DNA of 64,000 nt from contig JAFUSU010000028.1 in the NCBI GenBank assembly GCA_017467515.1, positions 128,399 to 192,398 of the forward strand, given 5' to 3'. The stretch is from Alphaproteobacteria bacterium (GTDB taxonomy: Bacteria; Pseudomonadota; Alphaproteobacteria; RF32; CAG-239). The notes below the pieces were generated by a model. That model worked only from the letters and a program-made list of their open reading frames with translations. It searched no databases and had not been told where the DNA came from. Shown here in pieces: positions 10,917 through 56,643 of this stretch (position 1 is its first letter; each line of letters opens with the position of its first letter). A program made the position numbers and the translations under genes.

Positions 10917-11019
10917 AATTACTCCTCCTTATTGGTTAAAATCAGAAAAGAAGTAATCATTTTTAAGGGAATATCAATAATTGGTGTGTTATATTTCTGC
11001 TAAAACAAGGGAGAAAAAA

Positions 11020-11655
11020 ATGGTCCAAATAGCACCCAGCATCTTATCGGCAGATTTTTCAAAATTGAGGGAAGAAATTATTGCACTGGAACACGCCGGC
11101 GCAGATTTGATTCACATTGATGTTATGGACGGACATTTTGTGCCGAACCTGACATTCGGTCCGCAGATTGTTAAATCAGTTCGAGAATGTACGAAATTAC
11201 CGTTAGATGTTCATTTAATGGTTGATAATCCGGATGATATGTTAGAATGGTTTGCCTATGCCGGCGCTGATATTATTACCGTTCATACGGAAACATGCGC
11301 GCACTTGGATAAAACAATTGAGCAAATTCATTCTTTGGGGGCAAAAGCGGGCGTATCTCTTAATCCGGCAACATCTGAAAAAGTGTTGGAATATGTTTTA
11401 AACAAACTTGATTTAGTGCTGGTTATGAGTGTTAATCCGGGTTTTGGCGGTCAGGCATTTCAATCAGAGCAGCTCAAAAAAATTAATATGTTGAAGGAAA
11501 TGCGAAAAGCTTTGCCTTATTTGATTGAAGTAGACGGCGGAATTAATCCGATGACAGCTTCTGAATGTACGGCAGCCGGAGCTGATATTTTGGTTGCCGG
11601 AACATCAGTATTTTCGGGCGGTGACTATAAAAATAATATTCAGGCATTAAGATAA
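11020..11655 (+). CDS. rpe: Ribulose-phosphate 3-epimerase
   Basis: MVQIAPSILSADF...HIDVMDGHFVPN...GGINP motifs typical of Rpe; the ATG at 11020 is preceded by an aagggag SD (the ORF-track start at 10981 is probably too early). Confidence 0.9.
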   Translation: MVQIAPSILSADFSKLREEIIALEHAGADLIHIDVMDGHFVPNLTFGPQIVKSVRECTKLPLDVHLMVDNPDDMLEWFAYAGADIITVHTETCAHLDKTIEQIHSLGAKAGVSLNPATSEKVLEYVLNKLDLVLVMSVNPGFGGQAFQSEQLKKINMLKEMRKALPYLIEVDGGINPMTASECTAAGADILVAGTSVFSGGDYKNNIQALR

Positions 11656-11668
11656 AAAGGAGAAGACA

Positions 11669-12367
11669 ATGGCTTTAATTATGGTGATTGAAGATGAAGA
11701 AGCGCTAGGTCTGATGCTGAAGTATAATCTTGAAAAAGAAGGTTATGAAGTTATTGTTGAAACAAGAGGGGCAAAAGCATTGGGTGCCGTTGAAAAATAT
11801 GCTCCTTCGGTTATTTTGCTGGATTGGATGTTGCCTGAAATTTCCGGAGTTGAAATTTGCAAACTTATTCGTGCAAATCCTGAAATTAAAAATATTCCGA
11901 TCATTATGTTGACGGCTAAAGGAGAAGAAGAGGATAAAATCAAAGGGTTGTCTGCAGGGGCGGATGACTATGTTACTAAGCCTTTTTCAATTCCCGAATT
12001 AATGGCACGCGTTAAAACAAATTTACGTCGGGCTCCCGAAATTATAAAAACGAAAGAATTGGTTTTTGAAGATATTCGTATGGATTTGGTTACCAAAAAA
12101 GTCTATCGCGGAGAAAATTATATCCATTTAGGACCGACAGAATTTCGTCTGCTTAAAATGTTGATGGAAGAGCCGAAAAAAGTTTTTTCTCGAGATTATT
12201 TGCTCAAGAATGTTTGGGGAATTAATATTTATGTTGAAACCAGAACGGTTGATGTCCATATTCGTCGGCTGCGCAAATCTTTAAATGAATACGGACCGGA
12301 TTATATTCGTACGGTTCGGGCAACCGGTTATTCAATAGATAATCAGCCTCAGAATAATGAAGAATAA
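11669..12367 (+). CDS. phoB: OmpR/PhoB-family response regulator, closest by motif to PhoB
   Basis: Receiver + winged-helix domains; near-identical blocks to E. coli PhoB: LLDWMLP, MLTAKGEEEDK, GADDY(V/I)TKPFS, GPTEF(R/K)LL, VWG.N.YVE.RTVDVHIRRLRK.L. Confidence 0.8.
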   Translation: MALIMVIEDEEALGLMLKYNLEKEGYEVIVETRGAKALGAVEKYAPSVILLDWMLPEISGVEICKLIRANPEIKNIPIIMLTAKGEEEDKIKGLSAGADDYVTKPFSIPELMARVKTNLRRAPEIIKTKELVFEDIRMDLVTKKVYRGENYIHLGPTEFRLLKMLMEEPKKVFSRDYLLKNVWGINIYVETRTVDVHIRRLRKSLNEYGPDYIRTVRATGYSIDNQPQNNEE

Positions 12368-12401: not shown

Positions 12402-13640
12402 TTACATTTTTAATCTGTTTAGCAGATAAGCATAATTAGGAAAGCTTTTAGGGTTACCGATAACACCGAAAGAGGGCTTTTGAGCGAAGATTCTCTGCGC
12501 GGAAGCATTTACTTCGGCAACAGTTACCTGATTGAACAGCTTAAGCTTATCTTCAATCGGAATAAACCGGCCCAATAAAAAATCTTCACAGTACTCAACA
12601 ATCAGGTCCGATGGGTTTTCGTGCAGTTCCCAGAGTTCGGTTTTGAGATTGTTGTAAGCACATTTTAGTTCATCCTCGGTAATTCCGTTTTCCCTGATTC
12701 TGACAATTTCTTGACAAACAACGTCAACTACGGCAAGCAGATTTTTATGCAAACAAGAGGTGGTAATATAAAAGATATCTCCGCATGCGTAAGAATCAAT
12801 ATTGGCAGAAACAGCATAAACCAGTGATAACTCACTTCTTAATTTTGAGCAAAGGCGCGAGCTGTATGTGTTGCCGATAACCATAGCTAAAATTTCGTCA
12901 GCGGCAGAAAACCTCTTTTCCTCAGGAAAGATAAGTGTCAGCTGAACATCTGAGCCACCACGGGAGATGCGGTACGGATTAGCTGAAAACGAATGAACCG
13001 CAGAAGTCGATTTATAACCGCTTCTCATTGGCTCAAAGTATTTTTCGGCCATATCAAGCATTGATCCGTTACCATAAAGGCAGAGAACGCTGTTTCCCGC
13101 AGTGTAATAAGTTTCCCAAAATTTTCGGGCATCAACAGCCGTCAGATGAGAAACTGACTCTTTTGTTCCGAAAACAAGGGCTTGTTGCTTATCTATTCCA
13201 AAGCAGGAATGTAGTTCAGAAGCAAGTTGTTCATCCTCATCGTCATCCGAAACAGCCATTTCCGTTAAAATAACTTTGATTTCTTCTTTAATGGCAACGT
13301 CAAGAAACTGAGGGCGAATCAGCATATCAGTCATCATTTGCAGCATCGGTTCACAATGCTCTTTGAGAACACGAAAACCGAATGATGTAAAATCAAGATC
13401 GGTATATCCTTCCAAAGAACTTCCAAACCAAGACGGAATGCCTAGTAAATCCTTTTTTGAATAGTTCTGGCTGCCGGTAAATAAAAAATGTTCAACAGCA
13501 TGAGCTAACCCCGCAGTTGATTTTTTTTCATCTTTTGCACCGGCGTTAACCATAAAATAGGCATAAGCCAGAGGATTGTGCTCATCTTTTATAAAAATGA
13601 CGGGCAAACCATTTTTGAAATTTAATAATTTTGTTTCCAT
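12402..13640 (-). CDS. M16-family (insulinase/pitrilysin-like) zinc peptidase
   Basis: Inverted zinc motif HxxEH (GLAHAVEHFLF) near the N-terminus; 412 aa with two-lobed architecture typical of M16. Confidence 0.7.
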   Translation of the reverse strand: METKLLNFKNGLPVIFIKDEHNPLAYAYFMVNAGAKDEKKSTAGLAHAVEHFLFTGSQNYSKKDLLGIPSWFGSSLEGYTDLDFTSFGFRVLKEHCEPMLQMMTDMLIRPQFLDVAIKEEIKVILTEMAVSDDDEDEQLASELHSCFGIDKQQALVFGTKESVSHLTAVDARKFWETYYTAGNSVLCLYGNGSMLDMAEKYFEPMRSGYKSTSAVHSFSANPYRISRGGSDVQLTLIFPEEKRFSAADEILAMVIGNTYSSRLCSKLRSELSLVYAVSANIDSYACGDIFYITTSCLHKNLLAVVDVVCQEIVRIRENGITEDELKCAYNNLKTELWELHENPSDLIVEYCEDFLLGRFIPIEDKLKLFNQVTVAEVNASAQRIFAQKPSFGVIGNPKSFPNYAYLLNRLKM

Positions 13641-13772
13641 AATAATAATTTTAATAGTTTTGTTAATTAGAAATCATCTAAAAATATTTTGTCTATAAAG
13701 TCAAGATAAAAAGCTTGCCAATTAGTTCAAATTAGGGCAATATCAGCTCAAAATGAGATTGAAGGAAAAACG

Positions 13773-14897
13773 ATGGGATTAAAATACGAAATACTTAAAA
13801 CATCAGGAAAAAGCCGATTAGGAAAACTTTATACAAAACACGGTGTGGTTGATACGCCGGCCTTTATGCCTGTTGGCACTTGTGGAACGGTAAAAGCGAT
13901 GATGCCTGAATCCGTGGCTGCGACAGGAGCTCAAATTTTGCTGGGAAATACGTATCATTTGATGTTGCGTCCGGGGTCGGAATTAGTTGCTAAAATGGGT
14001 GGGTTGCATAAATTTATGAATTGGGATAAACCGATTTTGACCGATTCGGGCGGCTTTCAGGTTATGAGTTTAACGGGATTACGAAAATTAACGGAAGACG
14101 GTGTAACTTTCAGTTCTCATATTGATGGTAAAAAATATTTTTTAAGCCCTGAAGAATCAATGCGTATCCAATATAATCTCGATTCAAATATTACAATGGC
14201 ATTGGATGAATGTACTCCGTTTCCTTCAACCCATGAAGAAGCCAAAATTTCTATGGAACGCTCTATGCGGTGGGCTAAACGAAGCAAGGAAGCCTTTATA
14301 GACAGAGAAGGTTATGGTATTTTTGGTATTCAACAGGGCTGTATTTATAAAGATTTACGAGAATATTCCGCAAACGAACTCAAAAAAATAGGTTTTGACG
14401 GATATGCCATCGGTGGGCTTGCTGTTGGGGAAGGACAGGAAAAGATGTTTGAGGTTCTTGACTACGCTCCGCAAATGTTGCCCGAAAACAAACCGCGGTA
14501 TTTAATGGGCGTTGGTCGTCCGGACGATATTGTAGGCGCTGTTTTAAGAGGGGTTGATATGTTTGATTGCGTGATGCCGACACGCTCAGGGCGAACATCT
14601 CAAGCATTTACACGTTTTGGGACGGTTAATATTCGAAATGCCCGTCATAAAGAAGATCCTCGTCCGCTCGAAGAAGGATGTACCTGTCCGCTGTGCACAC
14701 ATTACAGTCGGGCTTACATTCATCACTTGCAAAAGTGTAACGAAATACTTGCAGTTATGTTGCTGACTTGGCATAATATCGCATATTATCAACGCTTGAT
14801 GCAAGGGTTAAGAAAGGCTTTAGCTGAGGATAATTTGCAACAATTTACTGAACAGTTTTATGCTGATCAAGCCCAAGGGGATATTGAGGAGTTGTAA
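13773..14897 (+). CDS. tgt: Queuine tRNA-ribosyltransferase
   Basis: Conserved Tgt blocks ([25 protein letters not shown], zinc site CxCxxC...H: [17 protein letters not shown]). Confidence 0.95.
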
Positions 14898-15850
14898 TGA
14901 ACGAACAAGAAAAAAAGACAAAAGTCGCCGATGAATTTGCCGAGAATAATAAGCAAGACGGTTTGAGAGTGTTTGTTGCCGGCGGTGCAAGATCAGGAAA
15001 CGATGATATTTACGTTGACGAGGCATATCAGTTAGGTCAACAAATTGCGGCGATGGATTTTAAACTGGATTTCGGATTGTCCAGTGCAGGCATTATGGGG
15101 GCTGTTGCCAGAGGTGTGCTCGATTGTTGGAAACAAAGAAAAAATGAAGAGCACCATACTATTAAAGGAATAACCACCAAAGAATATTATAGCTTATACA
15201 AAACAGATGAGATTTTAAGTCAAGTAGAAGATGTTATCGTGGCGCAAACCTTAGAAGAACGTAAGCAAAAGCTTTTGAATGCGGATTTTATAGTTTTTGC
15301 ACCGGGAGGTGTCGGAACTTTGGATGAGTTAGCTTACGATTGTGTGGCAATGCAAGATGGTTTTTTGAAAATAAAACCGTTTATTTTGTATAACATTAAT
15401 GGTTACTTCCACCATTTAGTCGAATATATCAAAGCGATGAATGCTGAAGGCTTTTCCGATCCGATGCCGTTTATTGTTGTTGATAACAGTGATGAGTTAG
15501 CCATTGTGTTCCGTTTACTGAAACGCAGATATAAAAAAGGGAAAACAACAAAAGAAGTTTATGCCTCAACCAGACAGCTTATTTACGAATTACCGTATTT
15601 CGTTAAAAATACAGGGGAAAATTGCAGTGTGGAAGAACTGTGTCAAAAAATTACCGATAACAGTTATCACGGCACATCGGAAGAACGGCAGGAAATGGCG
15701 AATGATATTGAACGAGCCTATTTGGAAAAAGAAATTGAAAGAATGTATGATCGCTTGGCTAAAACAGGGCGGGATACGGCTATTGTCAGTGATAAGCTGA
15801 GTGATTTAAAAAAACGCAAAAAACAAAATTATGATTTTTGCCCGTTGTAA
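14897..15850 (+). CDS. LOG-family (TIGR00730 / lonely-guy, cytokinin riboside 5'-monophosphate phosphoribohydrolase-like) protein with ~120-aa C-terminal extension
   Basis: Rossmann LOG motifs VFVAGGARSG, GLSSAGIMGAVARG, PGGVGTLDEL; start overlaps the tgt stop (TAATG). Confidence 0.7.
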   Translation: MNEQEKKTKVADEFAENNKQDGLRVFVAGGARSGNDDIYVDEAYQLGQQIAAMDFKLDFGLSSAGIMGAVARGVLDCWKQRKNEEHHTIKGITTKEYYSLYKTDEILSQVEDVIVAQTLEERKQKLLNADFIVFAPGGVGTLDELAYDCVAMQDGFLKIKPFILYNINGYFHHLVEYIKAMNAEGFSDPMPFIVVDNSDELAIVFRLLKRRYKKGKTTKEVYASTRQLIYELPYFVKNTGENCSVEELCQKITDNSYHGTSEERQEMANDIERAYLEKEIERMYDRLAKTGRDTAIVSDKLSDLKKRKKQNYDFCPL

Positions 15851-15878: not shown

Positions 15879-15907
15879 TTGACAAAATTTTTGGCAAGTA
15901 GTATAGT
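15879..15907 (+). promoter_or_regulatory. Near-consensus sigma70-type promoter
   Basis: TTGACA - 17 nt - TATAGT about 30 nt upstream of the ORF at 15939. Confidence 0.5.
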
Positions 15908-15938: not shown

Positions 15939-16424
15939 ATGGAAAAAATTAAAGTTAATGATATGGGCTTGCAAGGCAGGTTCATTATCGACCGTGACAG
16001 AATTTGGGATTTTTTTCCAAATCAGATCATAGCTGAATCGAAAGATCTCAGCTTAAAAATAAATAAAGGTCAGCCGGTCTGGGTTATGACACTGCGTAGT
16101 GGCGAGAAGTGGTACTATGTTCCATACAGCCACGAAATCTGTAAAGCGGAAAACATCCGTTTCGGTCGTATCTTTTTCGGGCGCTTTGCTCGTTACCAGC
16201 GAGATGAGTATGAACACAAATCTTGCCTGAAAAAGGTCTATCCGACTTACTTCTGTACCTCAAAGACTATGTTCCTTGTTAAAGAAACGAAGGAATACTG
16301 GCCTCAGAATTTGCCCAAGGATATGAAGGATCTTGAAGGAGGCTTTTGCCAAAAGACCAAATGGTTTGATGCCTTCCCGTCTTCTCCGGAAGCCGAGGAA
16401 TTTAACAAAAATAAACCCTACTGA
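15939..16424 (+). CDS. Hypothetical protein (ORFan)
   Basis: 161-aa ORF with strong promoter and terminator; shares an MEKIK start with the ORF at 7864; no recognised domain. Confidence 0.45.
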   Translation: MEKIKVNDMGLQGRFIIDRDRIWDFFPNQIIAESKDLSLKINKGQPVWVMTLRSGEKWYYVPYSHEICKAENIRFGRIFFGRFARYQRDEYEHKSCLKKVYPTYFCTSKTMFLVKETKEYWPQNLPKDMKDLEGGFCQKTKWFDAFPSSPEAEEFNKNKPY

Positions 16425-16498: not shown

Positions 16499-17707
16499 AT
16501 GCAAAAGGGCGCTCAATATCAAGCGGTTTTAGAGCTGATAACCGAAATTTTTAAGGATAAAATGCCGGCGGATGGCACTATTAATGCCTATCTGCGAGAG
16601 CGCAAGTATATCGGTTCGAAAGATCGCCGTTTCATTACTGATACGGTGTGGAATATTATCCGCCACCGTCGTCGCCTGACCTTTGATGCCCAAAGTGATA
16701 ATCCGCGGAACCTGTTGCTTTATTATCTGAAAAATGAAGATTTTGATGTTTTGTGTGCTGACAGTCCTTATGCGCTTGCCCCTTTGAGTAAGGAAGAAAA
16801 AATATGGTTAAAGCAGGAAAATGAGCAACCGTATCCTACTGAGGTAGAAGCAGAAACACCGGACTGGTTGTTTGCAAAAATAAAAGATATGAATTTGCTT
16901 AAAGCGCTTAATGAACCGGCCGGAGCCGATTTACGCATAAATATCCCCTCTCGGGAAATTGTTTTAAAAAAATTGCAAACAGAAGGATTATTCTTTCGTC
17001 CGACAAAATATTCTCCGATTGGTATTCGAGCCGAGGAAAGAGTCAATCTTCATAATTGTATGACATATCAGGAAGGCGAGGTTGAAGTCCAAGATGAAGC
17101 ATCGCAAATTGCTTCGTTTTTGGCAGATGTTAAACCGGAACACAAGACCATAGATTATTGTTGCGGGGCAGGCGGTAAAACACTGACAATTGCTTATTTA
17201 AATCAAAATAAAGGGCGAATTGATGTACACGATATTAATTGGAGCCGTCTTGAAGCAATTAAAGATCGAGCGGTGCGTTTGAAAATCAGTAACATAAATA
17301 TTGTGAAAGAACTCAAAGATAAAAACTATGATCGATTTATTGTTGATGCTCCCTGCTCGGGAAGCGGAACGTGGCGTCGCTCTCCTGATGCTAAATTCAG
17401 ATTATCGCCCCGGCAGTTGACCGAATTAAATCAAACACAATCAGAAATCTTAGAAACAGCTGCCAATCACACAAAGCAAGGTGGCAGAGTAGTTTATTTT
17501 ACCTGTTCGATTTTACCGGATGAAAATGAAAAAGTAATTGAGCAATTTTTGCAAAAACACAGAAACTTTAGTCCGATTAATCTCAAAAAACTCTGGCAAC
17601 AAAAGCTAAACGGTAACTATCCCGTCAGTGATGAATTTATGTTGCATTTAAATCCGTTGATAAGCGGAACGGATGGATTTTTCGTTTGTGTTTTAGAAAA
17701 GAATTAA
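16499..17707 (+). CDS. rsmB: 16S rRNA (cytosine-C5) methyltransferase RsmB/Sun family
   Basis: N-terminal NusB-like region, SAM-MTase motif DYCCGAGGKT, catalytic DAPCSGSGTWRR and C..TCS(I/L).P.ENE. Confidence 0.85.
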   Translation: MQKGAQYQAVLELITEIFKDKMPADGTINAYLRERKYIGSKDRRFITDTVWNIIRHRRRLTFDAQSDNPRNLLLYYLKNEDFDVLCADSPYALAPLSKEEKIWLKQENEQPYPTEVEAETPDWLFAKIKDMNLLKALNEPAGADLRINIPSREIVLKKLQTEGLFFRPTKYSPIGIRAEERVNLHNCMTYQEGEVEVQDEASQIASFLADVKPEHKTIDYCCGAGGKTLTIAYLNQNKGRIDVHDINWSRLEAIKDRAVRLKISNINIVKELKDKNYDRFIVDAPCSGSGTWRRSPDAKFRLSPRQLTELNQTQSEILETAANHTKQGGRVVYFTCSILPDENEKVIEQFLQKHRNFSPINLKKLWQQKLNGNYPVSDEFMLHLNPLISGTDGFFVCVLEKN

Positions 17708-18165
17708 TCGTTTTTATTTTTTAATTTGCCGTTAGCTCTGTAAATATATGAAATAATCTCGGCAACGGCGCCAAATGCTTCAAGCGGAATCTCACTGTCA
17801 ATATCCACGGCTTTCAAAATTTGCAATAAATCGGCATCTTTATGGATTTCAATTCCTTCATCTAAGGCAATTTGCACGATTTTTTTAGCAATATGCCCTT
17901 GTCCTTTAGCGACAACAACCGGAGCATTATCCTTTTCCATATCATAGCCGAGAGCAACGGCATAATCTGGGGATAACGCGTCATCATCGTTGTAATCAGA
18001 GCTAAAAGGTTTATCATTAATATCAGGCATAGAGGGCACTTTCATCGTGTTTGATATGCTGATTGTAGTGCTTTGACGGGAAAATGCAATATCTTTTGGC
18101 ATATTAATTGCATTTTTATCTGCAGAGGGAAGGTGTGCAGTTATGGATATGTTTGGTTTATCCAT
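17704..18165 (-). CDS. FlhB C-terminal-domain-like protein (stand-alone EscU/YscU/FlhB C-terminal homology)
   Basis: C-terminal half AVALGYDMEKDNAPVVVAKGQGHIAKKIVQIALDEGIEIHKDADLLQIL resembles the FlhB cytoplasmic C-terminal domain; its annotated start overlaps the flgB start, so the true start is probably an internal Met. Confidence 0.55.
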   Translation of the reverse strand: MDKPNISITAHLPSADKNAINMPKDIAFSRQSTTISISNTMKVPSMPDINDKPFSSDYNDDDALSPDYAVALGYDMEKDNAPVVVAKGQGHIAKKIVQIALDEGIEIHKDADLLQILKAVDIDSEIPLEAFGAVAEIISYIYRANGKLKNKND

Positions 18166-18553
18166 TGTCAGTTTAACAAAAAATAAGCTCGACTATTTGT
18201 CTGAAAAACAAAAAGTTGTTGCGACCAATATTGCTAACGCCAATACCCCCGGATATCTTGCCAAAGATGTTGAAGAACCCGATTTTTCCGCTCAAGTTCA
18301 AAGAAGTATCGCCGCCAGCCAAATGACGGTTACTAATCCGAAACACATTGTTTCTGCACCTTCCCAAAACAGCAGATTCAGAGTTGTTACACCTAAACCG
18401 GATACGGCCTTAACCATAGACGGTAACGGTGTTGTACTTGAAGAACAACTCAATGAGGCAAGTAAAACCAAAGCGGAGTACGAAAAAGCACTGACAATTT
18501 ATAATAAATATAAATCTATGCTACAAACCGCGAATACTAAAATTAACACATAG
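18143..18553 (+). CDS. flgB: Flagellar basal-body rod protein FlgB
   Basis: N-terminal rod-protein motif ATNIANANTPGY; size and position ahead of flgC-fliE. Confidence 0.85.
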   Translation: MDMFGLSIVSLTKNKLDYLSEKQKVVATNIANANTPGYLAKDVEEPDFSAQVQRSIAASQMTVTNPKHIVSAPSQNSRFRVVTPKPDTALTIDGNGVVLEEQLNEASKTKAEYEKALTIYNKYKSMLQTANTKINT

Positions 18554-18564
18554 GATGATGATAA

Positions 18565-18978
18565 ATGGGAAATAATTTATTAGTCAGTTCAGATATTGCC
18601 GTTTCGGGAATGAAAGCCCAAGCTGAGCGCCTGCGTATTATTTCCCAAAATATGGCAAATGCCGATTCAACGGCACAAACACCGGGAGGTGAGCCTTATC
18701 GCCGTCAGATCGTTACTTTTAAGGATTATGTAGACGCTGAAACCGGAGCACACAAAGTAAAAGTTGCCAGTGTGCAGACAGATGAATCGGAATTACCAAA
18801 AAAATATGATCCGAACCATCCGGCGGCAGATGCTCAGGGGTACATTACATTGCCGAATGTCAATCCCTTGGTGGAAATGATGGATATGAAAGAAGCGCAA
18901 CGCAGTTATGATGCCAATTTATCAATGATGAAAACTGCGCGCGATATGGAAGCAAAAGTTTTAGATGTTTTGAAATAG
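18565..18978 (+). CDS. flgC: Flagellar basal-body rod protein FlgC
   Basis: ISQNMANADST and C-terminal VNPLVEMMDMKEAQRSYDANLSMMKTARDM motifs. Confidence 0.9.
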   Translation: MGNNLLVSSDIAVSGMKAQAERLRIISQNMANADSTAQTPGGEPYRRQIVTFKDYVDAETGAHKVKVASVQTDESELPKKYDPNHPAADAQGYITLPNVNPLVEMMDMKEAQRSYDANLSMMKTARDMEAKVLDVLK

Positions 18979-18989
18979 GGGAATAAAGA

Positions 18990-19313
18990 ATGAATAATAT
19001 ATCAAGTGCTTTGAATGCTTATCAGCAAGCTTTGTCCCGTATCGGTAATGCCGCTAAAGCGACCACAATTACCACGGCGGAAAATACAGCGCCGCAAAAT
19101 AATTTTCAATCAATGGTGACAACGGCCATTCAAGGTGTTGAAAAGAGCACGCGCAGTGCTGAAGAAGCATCATTGGCAGGCTTGGCTGGTAAAGCAGATA
19201 TTCAAGATGTTGTTTTGGCTGTTTCCAATGCCGAAGTAGCTCTTGAAACGGTTGTTGCCGTGAGAGATACAGCGATTAAGGCGTATAAAGAAATTATGCA
19301 AATGACTATTTAA
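18990..19313 (+). CDS. fliE: Flagellar hook-basal body complex protein FliE
   Basis: 107 aa, conserved C-terminal block QDVVLAVSNAEVALETVVAVRDTAIKAYKEIMQM. Confidence 0.85.
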   Translation: MNNISSALNAYQQALSRIGNAAKATTITTAENTAPQNNFQSMVTTAIQGVEKSTRSAEEASLAGLAGKADIQDVVLAVSNAEVALETVVAVRDTAIKAYKEIMQMTI

Positions 19314-23203: not shown

Positions 23204-23722
23204 TTAGGAGATAAATTGACGACGGTTTTTGTAAATCTGTATAAATGTCCATATACATAATACGATACAAGCTACAGCCGAAGGATATGCTTGCACATAA
23301 AAATTATGAATAAACCATAAAAGCAGATTAGAAACCAAAGCCCAACGCATTTGCTGTTCGTTTTTTGTTGTATACATAAAAATAGTATAACTGGCAGAGG
23401 CAATAATGGGAAATAGGCCGATAATACCGAGATTATTAACATAAAGCCCGATAGCCACGTTTATAATTAGCAGAATATAGGTAATATTTTTAGTTAGTTT
23501 GCCTTTATAAGATAAAATATTACGAATAAGGCAAACCACACTGATAACAATTGCCGCATAAGCCGAAAGCACAATGCATGTTGCAATTCCGAAAAGTGGA
23601 TCTCCGATTTGCCAATACATAAAATCTTTTTTATTTTTCTTGATAACCGAAATGGCAAGGCAAATTGCAGATAATAAGGAAAAAATATTTCCGATGATTA
23701 AATATGTTGGCATTTGTTTCAA
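23204..23722 (-). CDS. Small polytopic inner-membrane protein (possibly YgjV-like)
   Basis: 172 aa, about five hydrophobic helices; overlaps the downstream gene by 4 nt. Confidence 0.5.
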   Translation of the reverse strand: MKQMPTYLIIGNIFSLLSAICLAISVIKKNKKDFMYWQIGDPLFGIATCIVLSAYAAIVISVVCLIRNILSYKGKLTKNITYILLIINVAIGLYVNNLGIIGLFPIIASASYTIFMYTTKNEQQMRWALVSNLLLWFIHNFYVQAYPSAVACIVLCIWTFIQIYKNRRQFIS

Positions 23723-26629: not shown

Positions 26630-26746
26630 AAAAGTCCGATAATTTGTGAAAAATTGCTGTTTTCGGGAACGGATTTATCGGACTTTGTGAGAAGCAATAA
26701 TAACAACAAAAAACCCACCTTTTCGGTGGGCTTTTTGTTAATGGTG
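26630..26746 (+). repeat. Repeat A copy 3 (native tRNA-Thr downstream region with terminator hairpin cccaccttttcggtggg)
   Basis: Abuts and overlaps the tRNA-Thr 3' end. Confidence 0.7.
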
Positions 26747-26814
26747 CCGCTGATAAGAATCGGACTTACGACCCCGTCATTACCAATGACGTGCTCTACC
26801 ACTGAGCTACAACG
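26740..26814 (-). tRNA. tRNA-Thr (anticodon GGU)
   Basis: Reverse complement reads GCCGTTG-TA-GCTC-AGTGGTA-GAGC-A-CGTCA-TTGGTAA-TGACG-GGGTC-GTAAG-TCCGATT-CTTAT-CAGCGGC-A-CCA; clover-leaf with 7-bp acceptor (one G-U), anticodon loop uuGGUaa, encoded CCA. Confidence 0.85.
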
Positions 26815-26855
26815 GCACTTAATAATAAATTTTATTGTCTGTTTTACCTCTGTGC

Positions 26856-29315: not shown

Positions 29316-30032
29316 ATGAATAAAATTTGCTATTCTTCGGAAATATACCATTTGGCGGTTGAAGATGTTATATCTTTGCCGGATTCAAACGTATCTCTCC
29401 CTTATACACCTAAAGATCAAGTTATCATTTTGATCGGTAAACGACAATTGTGGAACCCTGATTTTCCGGTACAACAAGATGCTTTGCTTAAAGGTCGTAA
29501 AGTCGTGGAAAAGGCTATTGCTCAGGGAGAGGATTATGTACCGGTACGTATCGCTTTTGAGTCCCGAATTAAATCGTATGATATTATCTCACCGATTATT
29601 CGTAAATTGCGCTATAAATATAATTTGTTCGGTAGCAACATATATCATATGCGCACACAAGAAATCAGAGAAAAAGGGCTGGAAAGAAATTTAAGAACAG
29701 CTGAAAATGCTTATAAATTTTCTAATCCGAAATATAAAATGAGTAAGGCTCAACGCCGTGCGACATATGAAAATCTGCTCAAAAGTATGAGAGAAAACGG
29801 ATATGACGATGCATTTCCTTTGGATATTATGTTGTGTCGTAATATGGGCATACAAGATACTTTAAATCAAGGGCATCATCGTATGAGCGCTGCAATTGAA
29901 TGCGGTATAGAACGGGTATCGGTTGAATTTTGTGCGGCGGGGCAATCGCCGAAATTTTTGCATTTGCTGTTTTATATGGTTGCAAAAATGAATATGTGGA
30001 TTAAACACATCATAAGTGGTTTGAGGACATAA
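29316..30032 (+). CDS. ParB/Srx-fold (ParB-like nuclease domain) protein with unknown N-terminal domain
   Basis: C-terminal QGHHRMSAAIECGIERVSV matches the ParBc/sulfiredoxin/DGQHR-type signature ([DQ]G.HR..AA....G...(I/V)(P/S)V); agggagt SD. Confidence 0.55.
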   Translation: MNKICYSSEIYHLAVEDVISLPDSNVSLPYTPKDQVIILIGKRQLWNPDFPVQQDALLKGRKVVEKAIAQGEDYVPVRIAFESRIKSYDIISPIIRKLRYKYNLFGSNIYHMRTQEIREKGLERNLRTAENAYKFSNPKYKMSKAQRRATYENLLKSMRENGYDDAFPLDIMLCRNMGIQDTLNQGHHRMSAAIECGIERVSVEFCAAGQSPKFLHLLFYMVAKMNMWIKHIISGLRT

Positions 30033-37598: not shown

Positions 37599-38258
37599 CT
37601 AAAATGCATTGCCTATAATTTTATCCGTAATGGCTTTTGCGCGGACAGGTGTAATCTGTGCTAATATAGCAGAAGAGTTTGAAGGTTTCATTTCCTTTAA
37701 AAGAGCAACGGCAACTTCCAAATCCAATGTTTCAAATATACGAGCTGCCTCTTTAGGTTTCATACTGGCATAGACTTTAACCAAAGACATAATTTTAGCT
37801 TTTTCTTTTTCATTGTATTCTCGAATCAACTGCTTTAATTTTTGCTCATATTCTTGCATTTGTTTAAGACGTTTATCAATTTCCTGCTCGGATACTTTCA
37901 GTTGAACTGCTTTTTTATCAATTTCTTGACTCCGTAAATCTAAAGCTTCTCGTCTTTCGGCCAATTCTTGAAGAATTTGGATTTCTGATTGGGTAAATTG
38001 ATTTTTCTTTTCATCATCGTGATTGTCGGAAGATGCTTGCGCATCTTTCTGCATATCGGAAGTTTGCAATGCTGTGGTTAGCGCCGCCGTTTCGGGAGTC
38101 GATGTTTCTGCAGCCTGCAATTCATTTAAACTCAATTGAGGGATAGAGTGTTTTTGTACCATCTCAAAAACACTTTCTACCCGAATTGTCAGCATCAAAA
38201 CGGAAAGAAAGATAATCAAAGGAAGAACACGTATATGTTTTGCTATCATTTTCATCAA
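37599..38258 (-). CDS. MotE-like / MgtE_N-domain flagellar motility protein
   Basis: N-terminal TM, coiled coil, C-terminal YASMKPKEAARIFETLDLEVAVALLKEMKPSNSSAILAQI resembles the MgtE_N/MotE (FlbB-like) domain. Confidence 0.55.
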   Translation of the reverse strand: MMKMIAKHIRVLPLIIFLSVLMLTIRVESVFEMVQKHSIPQLSLNELQAAETSTPETAALTTALQTSDMQKDAQASSDNHDDEKKNQFTQSEIQILQELAERREALDLRSQEIDKKAVQLKVSEQEIDKRLKQMQEYEQKLKQLIREYNEKEKAKIMSLVKVYASMKPKEAARIFETLDLEVAVALLKEMKPSNSSAILAQITPVRAKAITDKIIGNAF

Positions 38259-38261
38259 TAC

Positions 38262-38714
38262 CTACTTAATTGAACGCAATGCTTTTAAGAGTTCCATTTC
38301 CGCCGCTGAACGGTCATCAGCCGGGGTATCTGAAAAACGGCTTTTTTTATCAAGAGAAATTTCTTCTGCGGAAATATCATTTTTTATTTGCCGTCCATCG
38401 TGAATAACATTCTCCAAACGGTCAGCCAAATTATCTGCCCGTTCATTGATGAAAGTTAAGTCATCTTTTAATGATTTTGCGCTTTCAACAACATCTTGCA
38501 AATTCTGAGATGATTGCTCCGTGACATTTCTTAGTTTTGGAATGGAACTTTCAGCTTTAACCGTTGCTTCATTTAAAGAAGAAATAAGACGGGATAGACT
38601 GCTCTGATTCTCTCTTAAAATGGTTAAGTTCTTATTTAGGCGATAAGCATAAATAATTGTCGGAATCAATAAGGCAATAATCAAAAGATTTATAACTAAT
38701 TCAAAACTACCCAT
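38262..38714 (-). CDS. Membrane-anchored coiled-coil protein of the flagellar cluster (likely true start MGSFELV...)
   Basis: TM helix + coiled coil; the ORF-track start at 38747 overlaps the fliM 3' end, so the internal Met at 38714 is more plausible. Confidence 0.45.
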   Translation of the reverse strand: MGSFELVINLLIIALLIPTIIYAYRLNKNLTILRENQSSLSRLISSLNEATVKAESSIPKLRNVTEQSSQNLQDVVESAKSLKDDLTFINERADNLADRLENVIHDGRQIKNDISAEEISLDKKSRFSDTPADDRSAAEMELLKALRSIK

Positions 38715-39837
38715 TATCGTGTGCCTTTCCGGTAACTTTAATAACAATATTATCGCCTTTTCGTCCCATTAGTCCCGAAAACAAATCGACATCGCCGCAA
38801 ATCAAATTAATTTTATCGTGCGGGGACATATCCAAAGGCAGAAAAGAACCGGGCTCCCATTTGGCTATTTCTCCCAGCGGAACTTCAAGTTCTTTGAGGA
38901 TAACTTTTGTATCTAAATCTGTATTCCATAGTCTTTCAACAAGATGATTTTCCCAAATCATATCGCGACCGTAGCGTTCTCCCATAAACATCTGCAATAA
39001 CAAATCACGGATAGGTTCCAGTGTTGCATAAGGAATCATTAAATCAACCTTACCGCCACGATCTTCCATATCTACACGGAGTCTGGCAACAATAACCGCA
39101 TTGGATAAACGAGAAATGGTGGCAAAACGAGGATTTGTTTCCATTCGATCATAGGTAAAATTAACGGATGTAACAGGATCAAAAGCCGTAGACAAATCAG
39201 CTAAAATAATGTCTAGCATATCTTTAACAAGGTTCAATTCAATGGTTGTGTAAGGCCTGCCCTCAATTCTGACAGCCGCCGTTCCTCGTCGACCGCCTAA
39301 TAAAACATCAACAATAGAATAGACAAGGGAAGAATCAATAGAGATTAACCCATAATTATCCCACTCCTCAGCTTTGAAAACACCTAATAAAGTAGGCAAC
39401 GTCAGAGCATCAATATATTCTCCGAAACGCATTGATTCGATACTGTCTAAAGAAACGTCAACATTATCCTGAGTAAAATTTCTTAAAGATGTGGACATCA
39501 TACGAATAAGGCGGTCAAAAACAATATCTAACATCGGCAGCCGTTCGTAAGAAACCATCGAGGAGTTCAAGATAGCCTTTACCCCTGTTTTTTCAACTTC
39601 GGAAGAGTAACGATTCTGTTCACTGTATCCGAACAGGGCATCAATCTCTTCTTGATTCAAAATTTTTGAGCTGCTGTTAATTGCGGCAGATTGATCCAAT
39701 CCGCCTTTGGCGGCAATTATATCTGTCCAGTCATTGTTTTTCTCTTGAGAGGCTGCAGACTGATCTGTCGTTTCAGTATCAACTTTTTTAGATTCAGCAT
39801 CTACAGTTTCTGTCTCTTGGGAATTTTCGTCGCTCAC
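38707..39837 (-). CDS. fliM: Flagellar motor switch protein FliM
   Basis: LNQEEIDALFGY N-terminal CheY-P binding-like segment, central FliM domain, C-terminal SpoA-like region; follows fliL. Confidence 0.85.
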   Translation of the reverse strand: MSDENSQETETVDAESKKVDTETTDQSAASQEKNNDWTDIIAAKGGLDQSAAINSSSKILNQEEIDALFGYSEQNRYSSEVEKTGVKAILNSSMVSYERLPMLDIVFDRLIRMMSTSLRNFTQDNVDVSLDSIESMRFGEYIDALTLPTLLGVFKAEEWDNYGLISIDSSLVYSIVDVLLGGRRGTAAVRIEGRPYTTIELNLVKDMLDIILADLSTAFDPVTSVNFTYDRMETNPRFATISRLSNAVIVARLRVDMEDRGGKVDLMIPYATLEPIRDLLLQMFMGERYGRDMIWENHLVERLWNTDLDTKVILKELEVPLGEIAKWEPGSFLPLDMSPHDKINLICGDVDLFSGLMGRKGDNIVIKVTGKAHDNG

Positions 39838-39840
39838 CTT

Positions 39841-40407
39841 TTAATCCTCTTGTCTTTCCAAAGCATCCGTAATTTGAATATCTAAATTTTTAATATTTAA
39901 ATTCAAAATGGTAACGGGTGATGCCATTAAATTAATGCGATGAAGTAATTCTGTTTTCAACGCATAAAAACCTTCCGAACCACTGATTTCTTCTGCAGTA
40001 ATTTCAACTAAATGCCCGATAATAATATCGTTAATTCTGGAAGACATACTTGTAATCATAGAAATGTCTTCTACAGAAGATAATTCCAGATTAAGCTGAA
40101 TTCTAACGGTTTCAAATACACCGCTGCTTGTTCGTAAATTGGCAGATAACTCCGGTAAAGAATAAAAAACGGTAGACGTTTCACCTGATCCGTCTGCATT
40201 TTTGCGTGTAATAATGTCATAAGCTTGAGATGTGTCTTTATTTACGCTTGTAAAATAAGTAACAATACCGCCGACACCGGCTCCAATGACAATAATTGCC
40301 AAAATGAGATAAATCAGAATTTTCTTTTTCATTCCTTTTTCAGGAACAATATCGCCTTCTGTTTCATCTGCTTCGATATCTTTATCTTCTCTTTCTTCTT
40401 CAGCCAT
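39841..40407 (-). CDS. fliL: Flagellar basal-body-associated protein FliL
   Basis: Single N-terminal TM (ILIYLILAIIVIGAGVGGIV) plus FliL-type periplasmic domain; immediately upstream of fliM. Confidence 0.8.
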   Translation of the reverse strand: MAEEEREDKDIEADETEGDIVPEKGMKKKILIYLILAIIVIGAGVGGIVTYFTSVNKDTSQAYDIITRKNADGSGETSTVFYSLPELSANLRTSSGVFETVRIQLNLELSSVEDISMITSMSSRINDIIIGHLVEITAEEISGSEGFYALKTELLHRINLMASPVTILNLNIKNLDIQITDALERQED

Positions 40408-47438: not shown

Positions 47439-47906
47439 GTGCGGGAAAATATAATGAATGATAACCTACCGGAATTAAGAGATATTCATATACCTGACGG
47501 TGTGTCGATGTGGCCGCCGGCGTATGGTTGGTTTGTAATAGCAGGCAGCCTTTTTTTTGTATTTATGATGTATAAAATATATAAATCTTGGCAACTTAAA
47601 AGCCGCAAAAAATATGCTTTGCGTTTTTTGTCGGCATTAGATGAAACACAAATTATTACTTCTGCCGTCAAAATATCCGAATTGTTACGTCGCATCTGTA
47701 TTTACCGATACCCTGAAGCTGTTTCATTGAAGGGGGGATCGTGGTTTGATTTTTTGCAAAAGCACTGCAAAATAAATCTTGATCCGGATAGTGTGGATTT
47801 ATTATTGCATGCGCCGTATGTTAATCCTCAAAAGGAAAAATATACAAAAAAACAGCTCGAAAGTTTGATTCTCTTTGCAAGGCGTTGGGTGGGAGATAAT
47901 TTATGA
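47439..47906 (+). CDS. Small membrane protein, probably DUF4381 (Bat-operon associated)
   Basis: Single TM (WPPAYGWFVIAGSLFFVFMMY) immediately upstream of batA and overlapping its start by 4 nt. Confidence 0.45.
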   Translation: MRENIMNDNLPELRDIHIPDGVSMWPPAYGWFVIAGSLFFVFMMYKIYKSWQLKSRKKYALRFLSALDETQIITSAVKISELLRRICIYRYPEAVSLKGGSWFDFLQKHCKINLDPDSVDLLLHAPYVNPQKEKYTKKQLESLILFARRWVGDNL

Positions 47907-56245: not shown

Positions 56246-56626
56246 GCCTAAGGCAGTCGGATAGCTGCGCTTTGGAATGGAAAATCCAAAAGTGAGGAAA
56301 GTCCGAGCATCAAAGGAACAAAACACCGGATAACGTCCGGCTGGAGCAATCCACGGGAAAGTGCCACAGAAAAGTACCGCCTGTTTACAGGTAAGGTTGA
56401 AAAGGCGAGGTAAGAGCTCACCGCGATAACTGCAAAGTTATCGGCAAGGTAAACCCTGTTTGATGCAAGACCAAGTTAGGGGAGTATTGCTTGCAATATT
56501 ATACGGAGTGTTCCTAATCCACCCCAGAGGTAGGTCGCAACAAGCCGAATGGAAACATTCGGATCAGATGAATAGCTATCCCCTGTTTCGGCAGGGACAG
56601 AACTCGGCTTACAGACTGCCTTATTT
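56246..56626 (+). ncRNA. rnpB: RNase P RNA (bacterial type A)
   Basis: P1 pairing aaggcagtc (56250-56258) / gactgcctt (56614-56622); universally conserved GGAAAGUCCG block, P4 elements, ACAGAA(A)... and GGUAAG...AGAGC...GG(U)AAAC motifs. Confidence 0.85.
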
Positions 56627-56643
56627 TGCCAAAGGAGAATCAA

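Follow-up and report, generated by a model that had tools for sequence, protein, structure and literature searches.

A tgt gene paired with a divergent LOG-family gene that encodes a predicted orphan helical domain in one clade of uncultured Alphaproteobacteria

In a 64,000-nucleotide (nt) stretch of an Alphaproteobacteria bacterium genome (contig JAFUSU010000028.1; the whole stretch is called the window here, its GC content is 38%, and positions are counted from its first letter), we examined tgt, which encodes a tRNA-guanine transglycosylase, together with the long LOG-family gene that directly follows it. Profile hidden Markov model (HMM) scores and motifs place tgt at 13773-14897 of the plus strand (374 aa), and the long LOG open reading frame (ORF), which we call LOG-L, lies on the same strand at 14897-15850 (317 aa). 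The stop codon of tgt (TAA, 14895-14897) and the ATG of LOG-L (14897-14899) have one A in common. Read directly from the sequence, the plus-strand junction is GAGGAG-TTG-TAATG (14886..14899), in which GAGGAG (14886-14891), forming Glu-Glu codons close to the end of tgt, resembles a Shine-Dalgarno sequence and is located 5 nt before the LOG-L ATG, where it plausibly acts as the ribosome-binding site for LOG-L. An earlier note on this DNA had the coordinates, the reading frames and the TAATG junction with its common nucleotide right, and the HMM scores bear out the two gene identities that it gave. It had also taken the overlap to imply co-translation. Coupling is indeed plausible, but the overlap by itself is ordinary: at least five further same-strand gene pairs in the window have 1- or 4-nt stop/start overlaps (at 30032, 42218, 55563, 23719-23722, and 47903-47906), and with such overlaps frequent in the window, the one between tgt and LOG-L is unremarkable when taken alone.

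Because an M16 peptidase gene lies upstream on the minus strand (12402-13640, divergent from tgt), tgt is the first gene on the plus strand. Within the 132 nt that separate tgt from the M16 peptidase gene there is a promoter-like site, TTGAAA-17-CATAAT (13615..13643, plus strand), which scored 10/12 in a consensus scan and is, on this weak evidence, a candidate operon promoter. Beyond the LOG-L stop there is a near-consensus sigma-70 promoter, TTGACA-17-TATAGT (15879..15907, plus strand; 11/12 in the same type of scan). As tgt heads the strand and a promoter follows the end of LOG-L, the two genes are most simply read as a two-gene operon, with the promoter at 15879-15907 marking its 3' boundary. 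Judged by its position, this promoter probably drives the next ORF (15939-16424, 161 aa), which is an orphan with no Pfam, NCBIfam, or PADLOC match and whose conservation is limited to 4 to 5 loci of the nearest relatives.

The first protein of the pair is, by its scores and motifs, a canonical bacterial tRNA-guanine(34) transglycosylase of the preQ1 type. It scores 508.1 bits against the TIGR00430 equivalog model (cutoff 306.75), 532 bits against PF01702, and 518 bits against the Zymomonas mobilis Tgt structures, so that it is like the usual bacterial Tgt in both its equivalog match and its very strong similarity to the Z. mobilis enzyme. It has the catalytic aspartate motifs, the zinc site, and a pocket of the preQ1 type (GGLAVGE with D-E-C), the motifs being TDSGGFQ (residues 90-96), LDEC (144-147), GGLAVGE (214-220), MFDCV (263-267), and the zinc-site sequence CTCPLC (303-308). 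In E. coli, tgt usually belongs to the operon queA-tgt-yajC-secDF, whereas here it heads a pair with a LOG-family gene and has no queA, yajC, or sec gene in its vicinity. Both GGLAVGE and DEC were found in 78/78 Tgt proteins checked from the clade of relatives in which LOG-L is linked to tgt, ruling out a queuine-type Tgt. Tgts that salvage queuine typically carry GG[LS][AS]G at the pocket, while the preQ1 type, as in E. coli, has GGLAVG (PMC11570991). The Tgt of B. henselae, which has the same GGLAVGE motif, is reported to be dual-specific (PMC11130926).

The second protein belongs to the LOG family, as the earlier note had said: LOG-L scores 64.4 bits against PF03641 (LOG, "Lysine_decarbox"; cutoff 27), and Foldseek gives it a LOG fold. 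Its scores against narrower family models fall short of their cutoffs. It reaches 83.4 bits with TIGR00730, under the cutoff of 96.35, and is far from the equivalog models for cytokinin riboside 5'-monophosphate phosphoribohydrolase (NF058542, 42.2 bits versus a cutoff of 300) and PpnN (NF038390, 15.9 bits versus 450). The only other Pfam match is a weak one to PF18306 (SLOG cluster 4, 27.8 bits), to which PF03641 is clearly superior. The LOG-family Rossmann core comprises residues 1-210 (14897..15526, plus strand) and is supported by the PF03641, PDB, and Foldseek matches. Within it, the PDB sequence matches YvdD (1T35) and Arabidopsis LOG (2A33) span residues 22-198, and a Foldseek search with the LOG-L model returned only LOG and PpnN cores over residues ~22-200 (E 3e-8 to 1e-5; target-normalised TM 0.6-0.73). 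With the characterised LOG (LONELY GUY)/TIGR00730 proteins, which are type I and II cytokinin riboside 5'-monophosphate phosphoribohydrolases (for example B. subtilis YvdD 1T35, Arabidopsis thaliana 2A33/1YDH, and Corynebacterium glutamicum 5ITS/5WQ3), LOG-L thus shares the Rossmann core at ~22-200, the PGGxGTxxE motif, and the catalytic Arg-Lys pair, but in the structure alignments it is only about 22-29% identical to them.

The motifs of the LOG-L core include FGLSSAGIMG (residues 59-68), E-R-K (121-123), and PGGVGTLDE (136-144). In 80/80 family members PGGVGTLDE is invariant and the E-R-K element is retained as LE[ED]RK. The nucleotide-binding GGGxxGxMG motif keeps its first glycine and the GxMG part, with GGG changed to G-L-S throughout the family (FGLSSAGIMG), and the GVIP of LOG proteins is GITT in LOG-L. 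Since PGGVGTLDE and LE[ED]RK are preserved across the family, LOG-L is probably an active nucleoside-5'-monophosphate phosphoribohydrolase, which would cleave the N-glycosidic bond of its substrate and so release ribose-5-phosphate and the free base. A very unlikely alternative is that LOG-L is no hydrolase but a ligand sensor or carrier of the SLOG type, which would bind a nucleotide and thereby control another protein, for instance an adjoining transporter. The weak PF18306 match, the TIGR00730 score under the cutoff, the altered GGG motif, and the membrane transporters that are frequent neighbours in both clades of the family (described below) would all fit such a role; the clearly better PF03641 match and the catalytic Arg-Lys pair and PGGxGTxxE glutamate, invariant family-wide, argue against it, as does the lack of a match to any defence-system model. 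For the same protein, an anti-phage defence role as a SLOG protein was ruled out by the absence of a PADLOC match at E<=0.01.

LOG-L also differs from characterised LOG/TIGR00730 proteins in what follows the core, namely a conserved, predicted helical C-terminal domain of ~107 aa for which no relative was found. The earlier note had described a Lys/Arg/Glu-rich extension of about 120 aa and called it atypical of LOG; atypical it is, but with the end of the core at around residue 210 its length comes to about 107-115 aa, and it is a conserved domain with a confidently predicted helical structure. As delimited by the AlphaFold 2 (AF2) model and by conservation, this family-specific domain covers residues ~211-317 (15527..15850, plus strand, stop codon counted in). 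Its last 114 residues are 38% K/R/E/D (K14, R10, E12, D7), yet the extension is among the best-conserved segments of LOG-L, and AYLEKEIERMYDRLAKTGRDT..VS.KL..LK.R hardly varies when 17 or 39 family members are aligned. Structure prediction, which the earlier note had suggested, gave a confident four-helix domain with helices at 218-238, 245-258, 261-290, and 295-314; the predicted local distance difference test score is 82-90 over residues 220-290 when the whole protein is modelled, and 80.6 when the domain is modelled alone. The final helix is basic (KLSDLKKRKKQN) and invariant. A low-complexity charged tail was ruled out by this strong conservation and by the four confidently predicted helices.

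We found no relative of the domain outside the family. Pfam matches to the extension at E<=10 were no more than noise, Foldseek against the PDB gave no match under E=2, and an HMM of the domain matched family members only among 374 fetched proteins. Other long LOG proteins (P0145, P0155, P0205, and others) carry extensions that the domain HMM shows to be unrelated. When 1.84 billion representative proteins were scanned exhaustively with HMMER, only 11 matches reached E<=1e-30, all of the same family or fragments, and below them came a cliff to ordinary LOGs of ~180-200 aa, whose alignments are confined to residues ~25-210 and have about 36% identity and scores of about 80 bits; among the best 150 matches of that scan, the C-terminal region was covered by same-family sequences only. 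On these comparisons the domain is an orphan confined to the LOG-L family, and LOG-L represents a new, divergent, clade-restricted LOG subfamily that carries it.

PpnN (YgdH), the pyrimidine/purine nucleotide 5'-monophosphate nucleosidase of E. coli (6GFM), offers a comparison, as both proteins join a LOG-type catalytic core to extra domains. In PpnN the extra domains confer allosteric control, a precedent for a LOG core with a regulatory module (PMC9881137, discussion), and by analogy with them the C-terminal domain of LOG-L may serve oligomerisation or regulation. The PpnN flanking domains do not superpose on the LOG-L domain (root-mean-square deviation 11-18 Å), and no alarmone-binding site can be claimed.

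To see how far the arrangement extends, we scanned one genome per species (185,579 species), which yielded 299 relatives of LOG-L, and examined the best 80 of these. All 80 come from uncultured, mostly gut- or rumen-derived Alphaproteobacteria ("Azospirillum sp.", "CAG:495", Ca. Scatocola, RUG, and similar), a restriction that is not shared by the LOG/TIGR00730 family. In 79/79 testable species-level loci, the gene immediately before LOG-L on the same strand is tgt. The junction gap in these loci ranges from -4 to +22 nt, the larger negative gaps in the table of 79 loci being artefacts of the first-ATG rule, and most loci have GAGGAG, AAGGAG, or GGAG in the tail of tgt. The outer flanks vary, with at least 8 types of upstream and at least 12 types of downstream neighbour across related loci; downstream of the pair we found an ABC exporter, a Gate-domain membrane protein, EamA, MFS, LigA, VirB8, and a glycosyltransferase. 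As both flanks vary while tgt and LOG-L stay together, the pair has survived many rearrangements. For comparison, rpe and an OmpR-type regulator, which have no apparent functional relation, are kept adjacent in about 30 loci, a conservation as strong as that of many operons; in the window, rpe (ribulose-phosphate 3-epimerase) and the OmpR-type response regulator are at 10981-12367 and stand 13 nt apart.

Membrane proteins recur among the genes after the pair. A protein of ~408 aa with two Gate ("nucleoside recognition", PF07670) domains is encoded within four genes downstream, on the same strand, in 24/78 tgt-linked loci (L017:8766-9992). Other direct downstream neighbours are MFS_1 (L022:5968-7155), EamA (L032:5940-6830), and an ABC exporter (L043:5934-7712), MFS_1 and EamA occurring in a few loci. 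These neighbours could be transporters of precursors, or their presence could be a coincidence.

A search with P0122, the most divergent full-length member, revealed a second clade of the family, from which we sampled 11 members in distinct assemblies. Its proteins are 335-360 aa long, are 50-55% identical to the LOG-L of the window, and have the same C-terminal motifs. No tgt was found within ±6 kb of the LOG gene in any of the 11 genomes (0/11). Instead, an orthologous Na+/H+ exchanger gene (PF00999) lies immediately downstream on the same strand in 9/11 of them, with gaps of -14 to +97 nt, and a divergent RND efflux pair lies upstream in 9 of the 10 loci for which the upstream flank was recovered. 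The exchanger has ~590 aa and is sometimes accompanied by CorC_HlyC (L083-L096; for example L083:6001-8791, L091:5449-8300, and L094:6001-8803).

In a neighbour-joining tree rooted with ordinary LOGs, the 77 tgt-linked and 8 unlinked sequences form two reciprocally monophyletic clades. The linkage to tgt is therefore a single historical event that was inherited within one clade, and the LOG-L family as a whole does not need adjacency to tgt. The two clades may be orthologues in sister lineages or paralogues, and their locus GC overlaps (35-50% in both, apart from one locus at 63%). The earlier note had proposed to check the conservation of the tgt-LOG adjacency, and had named as evidence against its idea an adjacency unique to this genome combined with LOG orthologues elsewhere unlinked to tgt. 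The adjacency is far from unique to this genome, being present in 79/79 related species, although in one of the two clades only; unlinked members of the same family do exist, in 11/11 second-clade genomes, which goes part of the way against that idea. An RsmB/F-type rRNA methyltransferase gene is found within ~3 kb downstream of the long LOG gene in the window (16499-17707), at L081:9023-10075, and at L094:9997-10959. It occurs in loci of both clades (L001, L002, L004, L006, L081, and L094), the window and L081 proteins are 35% identical, and its proximity may be residual synteny or chance.

The second clade also bears on the idea that the two proteins are physical partners, with the basic C-terminal domain docking LOG-L on the Tgt dimer or on tRNA, so that LOG-L would be an accessory or regulatory subunit, loosely as QTRT2 is for QTRT1, and the coupling would set their stoichiometry. 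Such a partnership would agree with the conserved stop/start overlap and internal Shine-Dalgarno site, as well as with a highly conserved C-terminal domain whose basic last helix is invariant. However, the same domain and motifs are kept in the clade without tgt, so the role of the domain is not specific to Tgt, and bacterial Tgt is a self-sufficient homodimer. We regard a physical partnership as highly improbable.

The explanation that we favour, and hold to be probable on balance, is that the pair is a clade-specific co-expression unit, in which a canonical Tgt is joined by an enzyme of a new LOG subfamily that bears the orphan helical domain at its C-terminus. The two genes would form a translationally coupled operon that arose once and was then inherited within a single clade of uncultured Alphaproteobacteria from gut and rumen. 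Co-expression of tgt and LOG-L is supported at the level of gene arrangement only, from which a common pathway does not follow. In the other clade the same enzyme is found in an equally tight operon with a Na+/H+ exchanger, which makes the operon partner an unreliable guide to substrate in compact genomes.

Three points weigh against this explanation. First, although the surroundings were rearranged many times on either side, the two genes stayed together in all 79 species, and such persistence exceeds what simple synteny decay predicts and usually signals selection for co-expression. Second, should the two clades be paralogues that occur within the same genomes, the copy next to tgt could have specialised in a Tgt-related task. 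Third, with the TIGR00730 score under its cutoff and GGG replaced by G-L-S, LOG-L may differ from characterised LOGs in substrate or mechanism.

A Tgt-related task, if there is one, might be base salvage. In this scheme LOG-L would hydrolyse a 7-deazaguanine nucleoside-5'-monophosphate (that of preQ1, preQ0, or queuosine), arising from tRNA turnover or taken up from the gut, and the co-translated Tgt would insert the base, making LOG-L a third, non-homologous N-glycosidase of the queuosine family after Qng1 and QueK. We consider this unlikely. The strict conservation and tight coupling of the pair in 79/79 genomes while both flanks change speak for it, and transporter genes (Gate, MFS_1, EamA, and ABC) often come after the pair. 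LOG chemistry, which converts a nucleoside-5'-monophosphate to a base and ribose-5-phosphate, also matches the reaction by which Qng1 frees the base from queuosine-5'-monophosphate (PMC9881137), and the organisms are gut or rumen bacteria, from a niche in which queuosine precursors are shared (PMC11130926). On the other side, the second clade is not near tgt, and the Tgt has the preQ1-type GGLAVGE motif, with which queuine from queuosine-5'-monophosphate is not the expected substrate, though the B. henselae enzyme with this motif is reported to be dual-specific. To our knowledge, preQ1 nucleotides are not known as free metabolites.

Searches for a queuosine context were negative. A scan of about 37 window proteins and 10 neighbour families brought up no other queuosine-pathway gene; it took in part of the window ORFs, was confined to the 64 kb and ±5 kb flanks, and says little on the whole genome. 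An association of tgt with the LOG-L family as a whole and in independent lineages, or co-occurrence of the family with queuosine genes, was likewise not seen, tgt being adjacent in 79/79 loci of one clade and 0/11 of the other. A scan of the window at Rfam gathering thresholds gave no preQ1 riboswitch or other regulatory RNA; its sole matches in the 64 kb were an RNase P RNA of class A (56249-56627, plus strand, 285 bits) and one tRNA (26745-26816, minus strand).

The literature lends no support to a salvage role either: in the papers searched we found none that joins queuosine with LOG, "lonely guy", or TIGR00730, and the supplements of PMC11130926 do not cover the tgt-linked clade. Qng1 and QueK are the only known queuine-specific N-glycosidases, and LOG is named in that connection only as a fold unrelated to Qng1 (PMC9881137). 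Qng1 (DUF2419) has the HhH glycosylase fold and QueK is a Ca2+ nucleoside hydrolase, while LOG-L, with Pfam matches to PF03641 and PF18306 only, has the LOG fold and neither of these; it has no sequence similarity to either protein, and with Qng1 it has only the proposed salvage chemistry in common. Nothing beyond adjacency ties LOG-L to queuosine, so a salvage role, possible but unsupported, is a weak lead, and LOG-L may well have no specific queuosine function. A more elaborate form of the idea has LOG-L release preQ1, preQ0, or queuine from its 5'-monophosphate and pass the base to Tgt, in a closed recycling loop in gut Alphaproteobacteria that scavenge precursors, with the orphan domain giving specificity for substrate or partner; this we regard as more doubtful still.

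The co-expression unit that we favour nonetheless has consequences that depend on how the tgt link is read. If the link is functional, LOG-L would represent a third and independent enzymatic way to recover bases of the queuosine family, in abundant uncultured gut bacteria, and would bear on how the pool of the micronutrient queuine, which is shared with the host, is produced and consumed. Even without such a link, we have a clade-restricted LOG subfamily with an orphan domain that is predicted to be well folded and with two alternative tight operon partners, tgt or a Na+/H+ exchanger. The case also calls for caution, since in compact genomes translational coupling and adjacency in one clade do not alone establish a shared pathway.

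Elsewhere in the window, several ORFs look flagellar. Those at 17704-19313 do so by reading of their translations only (FlhB-C-like, flgB, flgC, and fliE). At 37599-40407 there is a FliL family match together with a weak, below-cutoff match to an FlbB-like collar protein (35 bits versus 110); FlbB is a protein otherwise described from the periplasmic flagella of spirochaetes.

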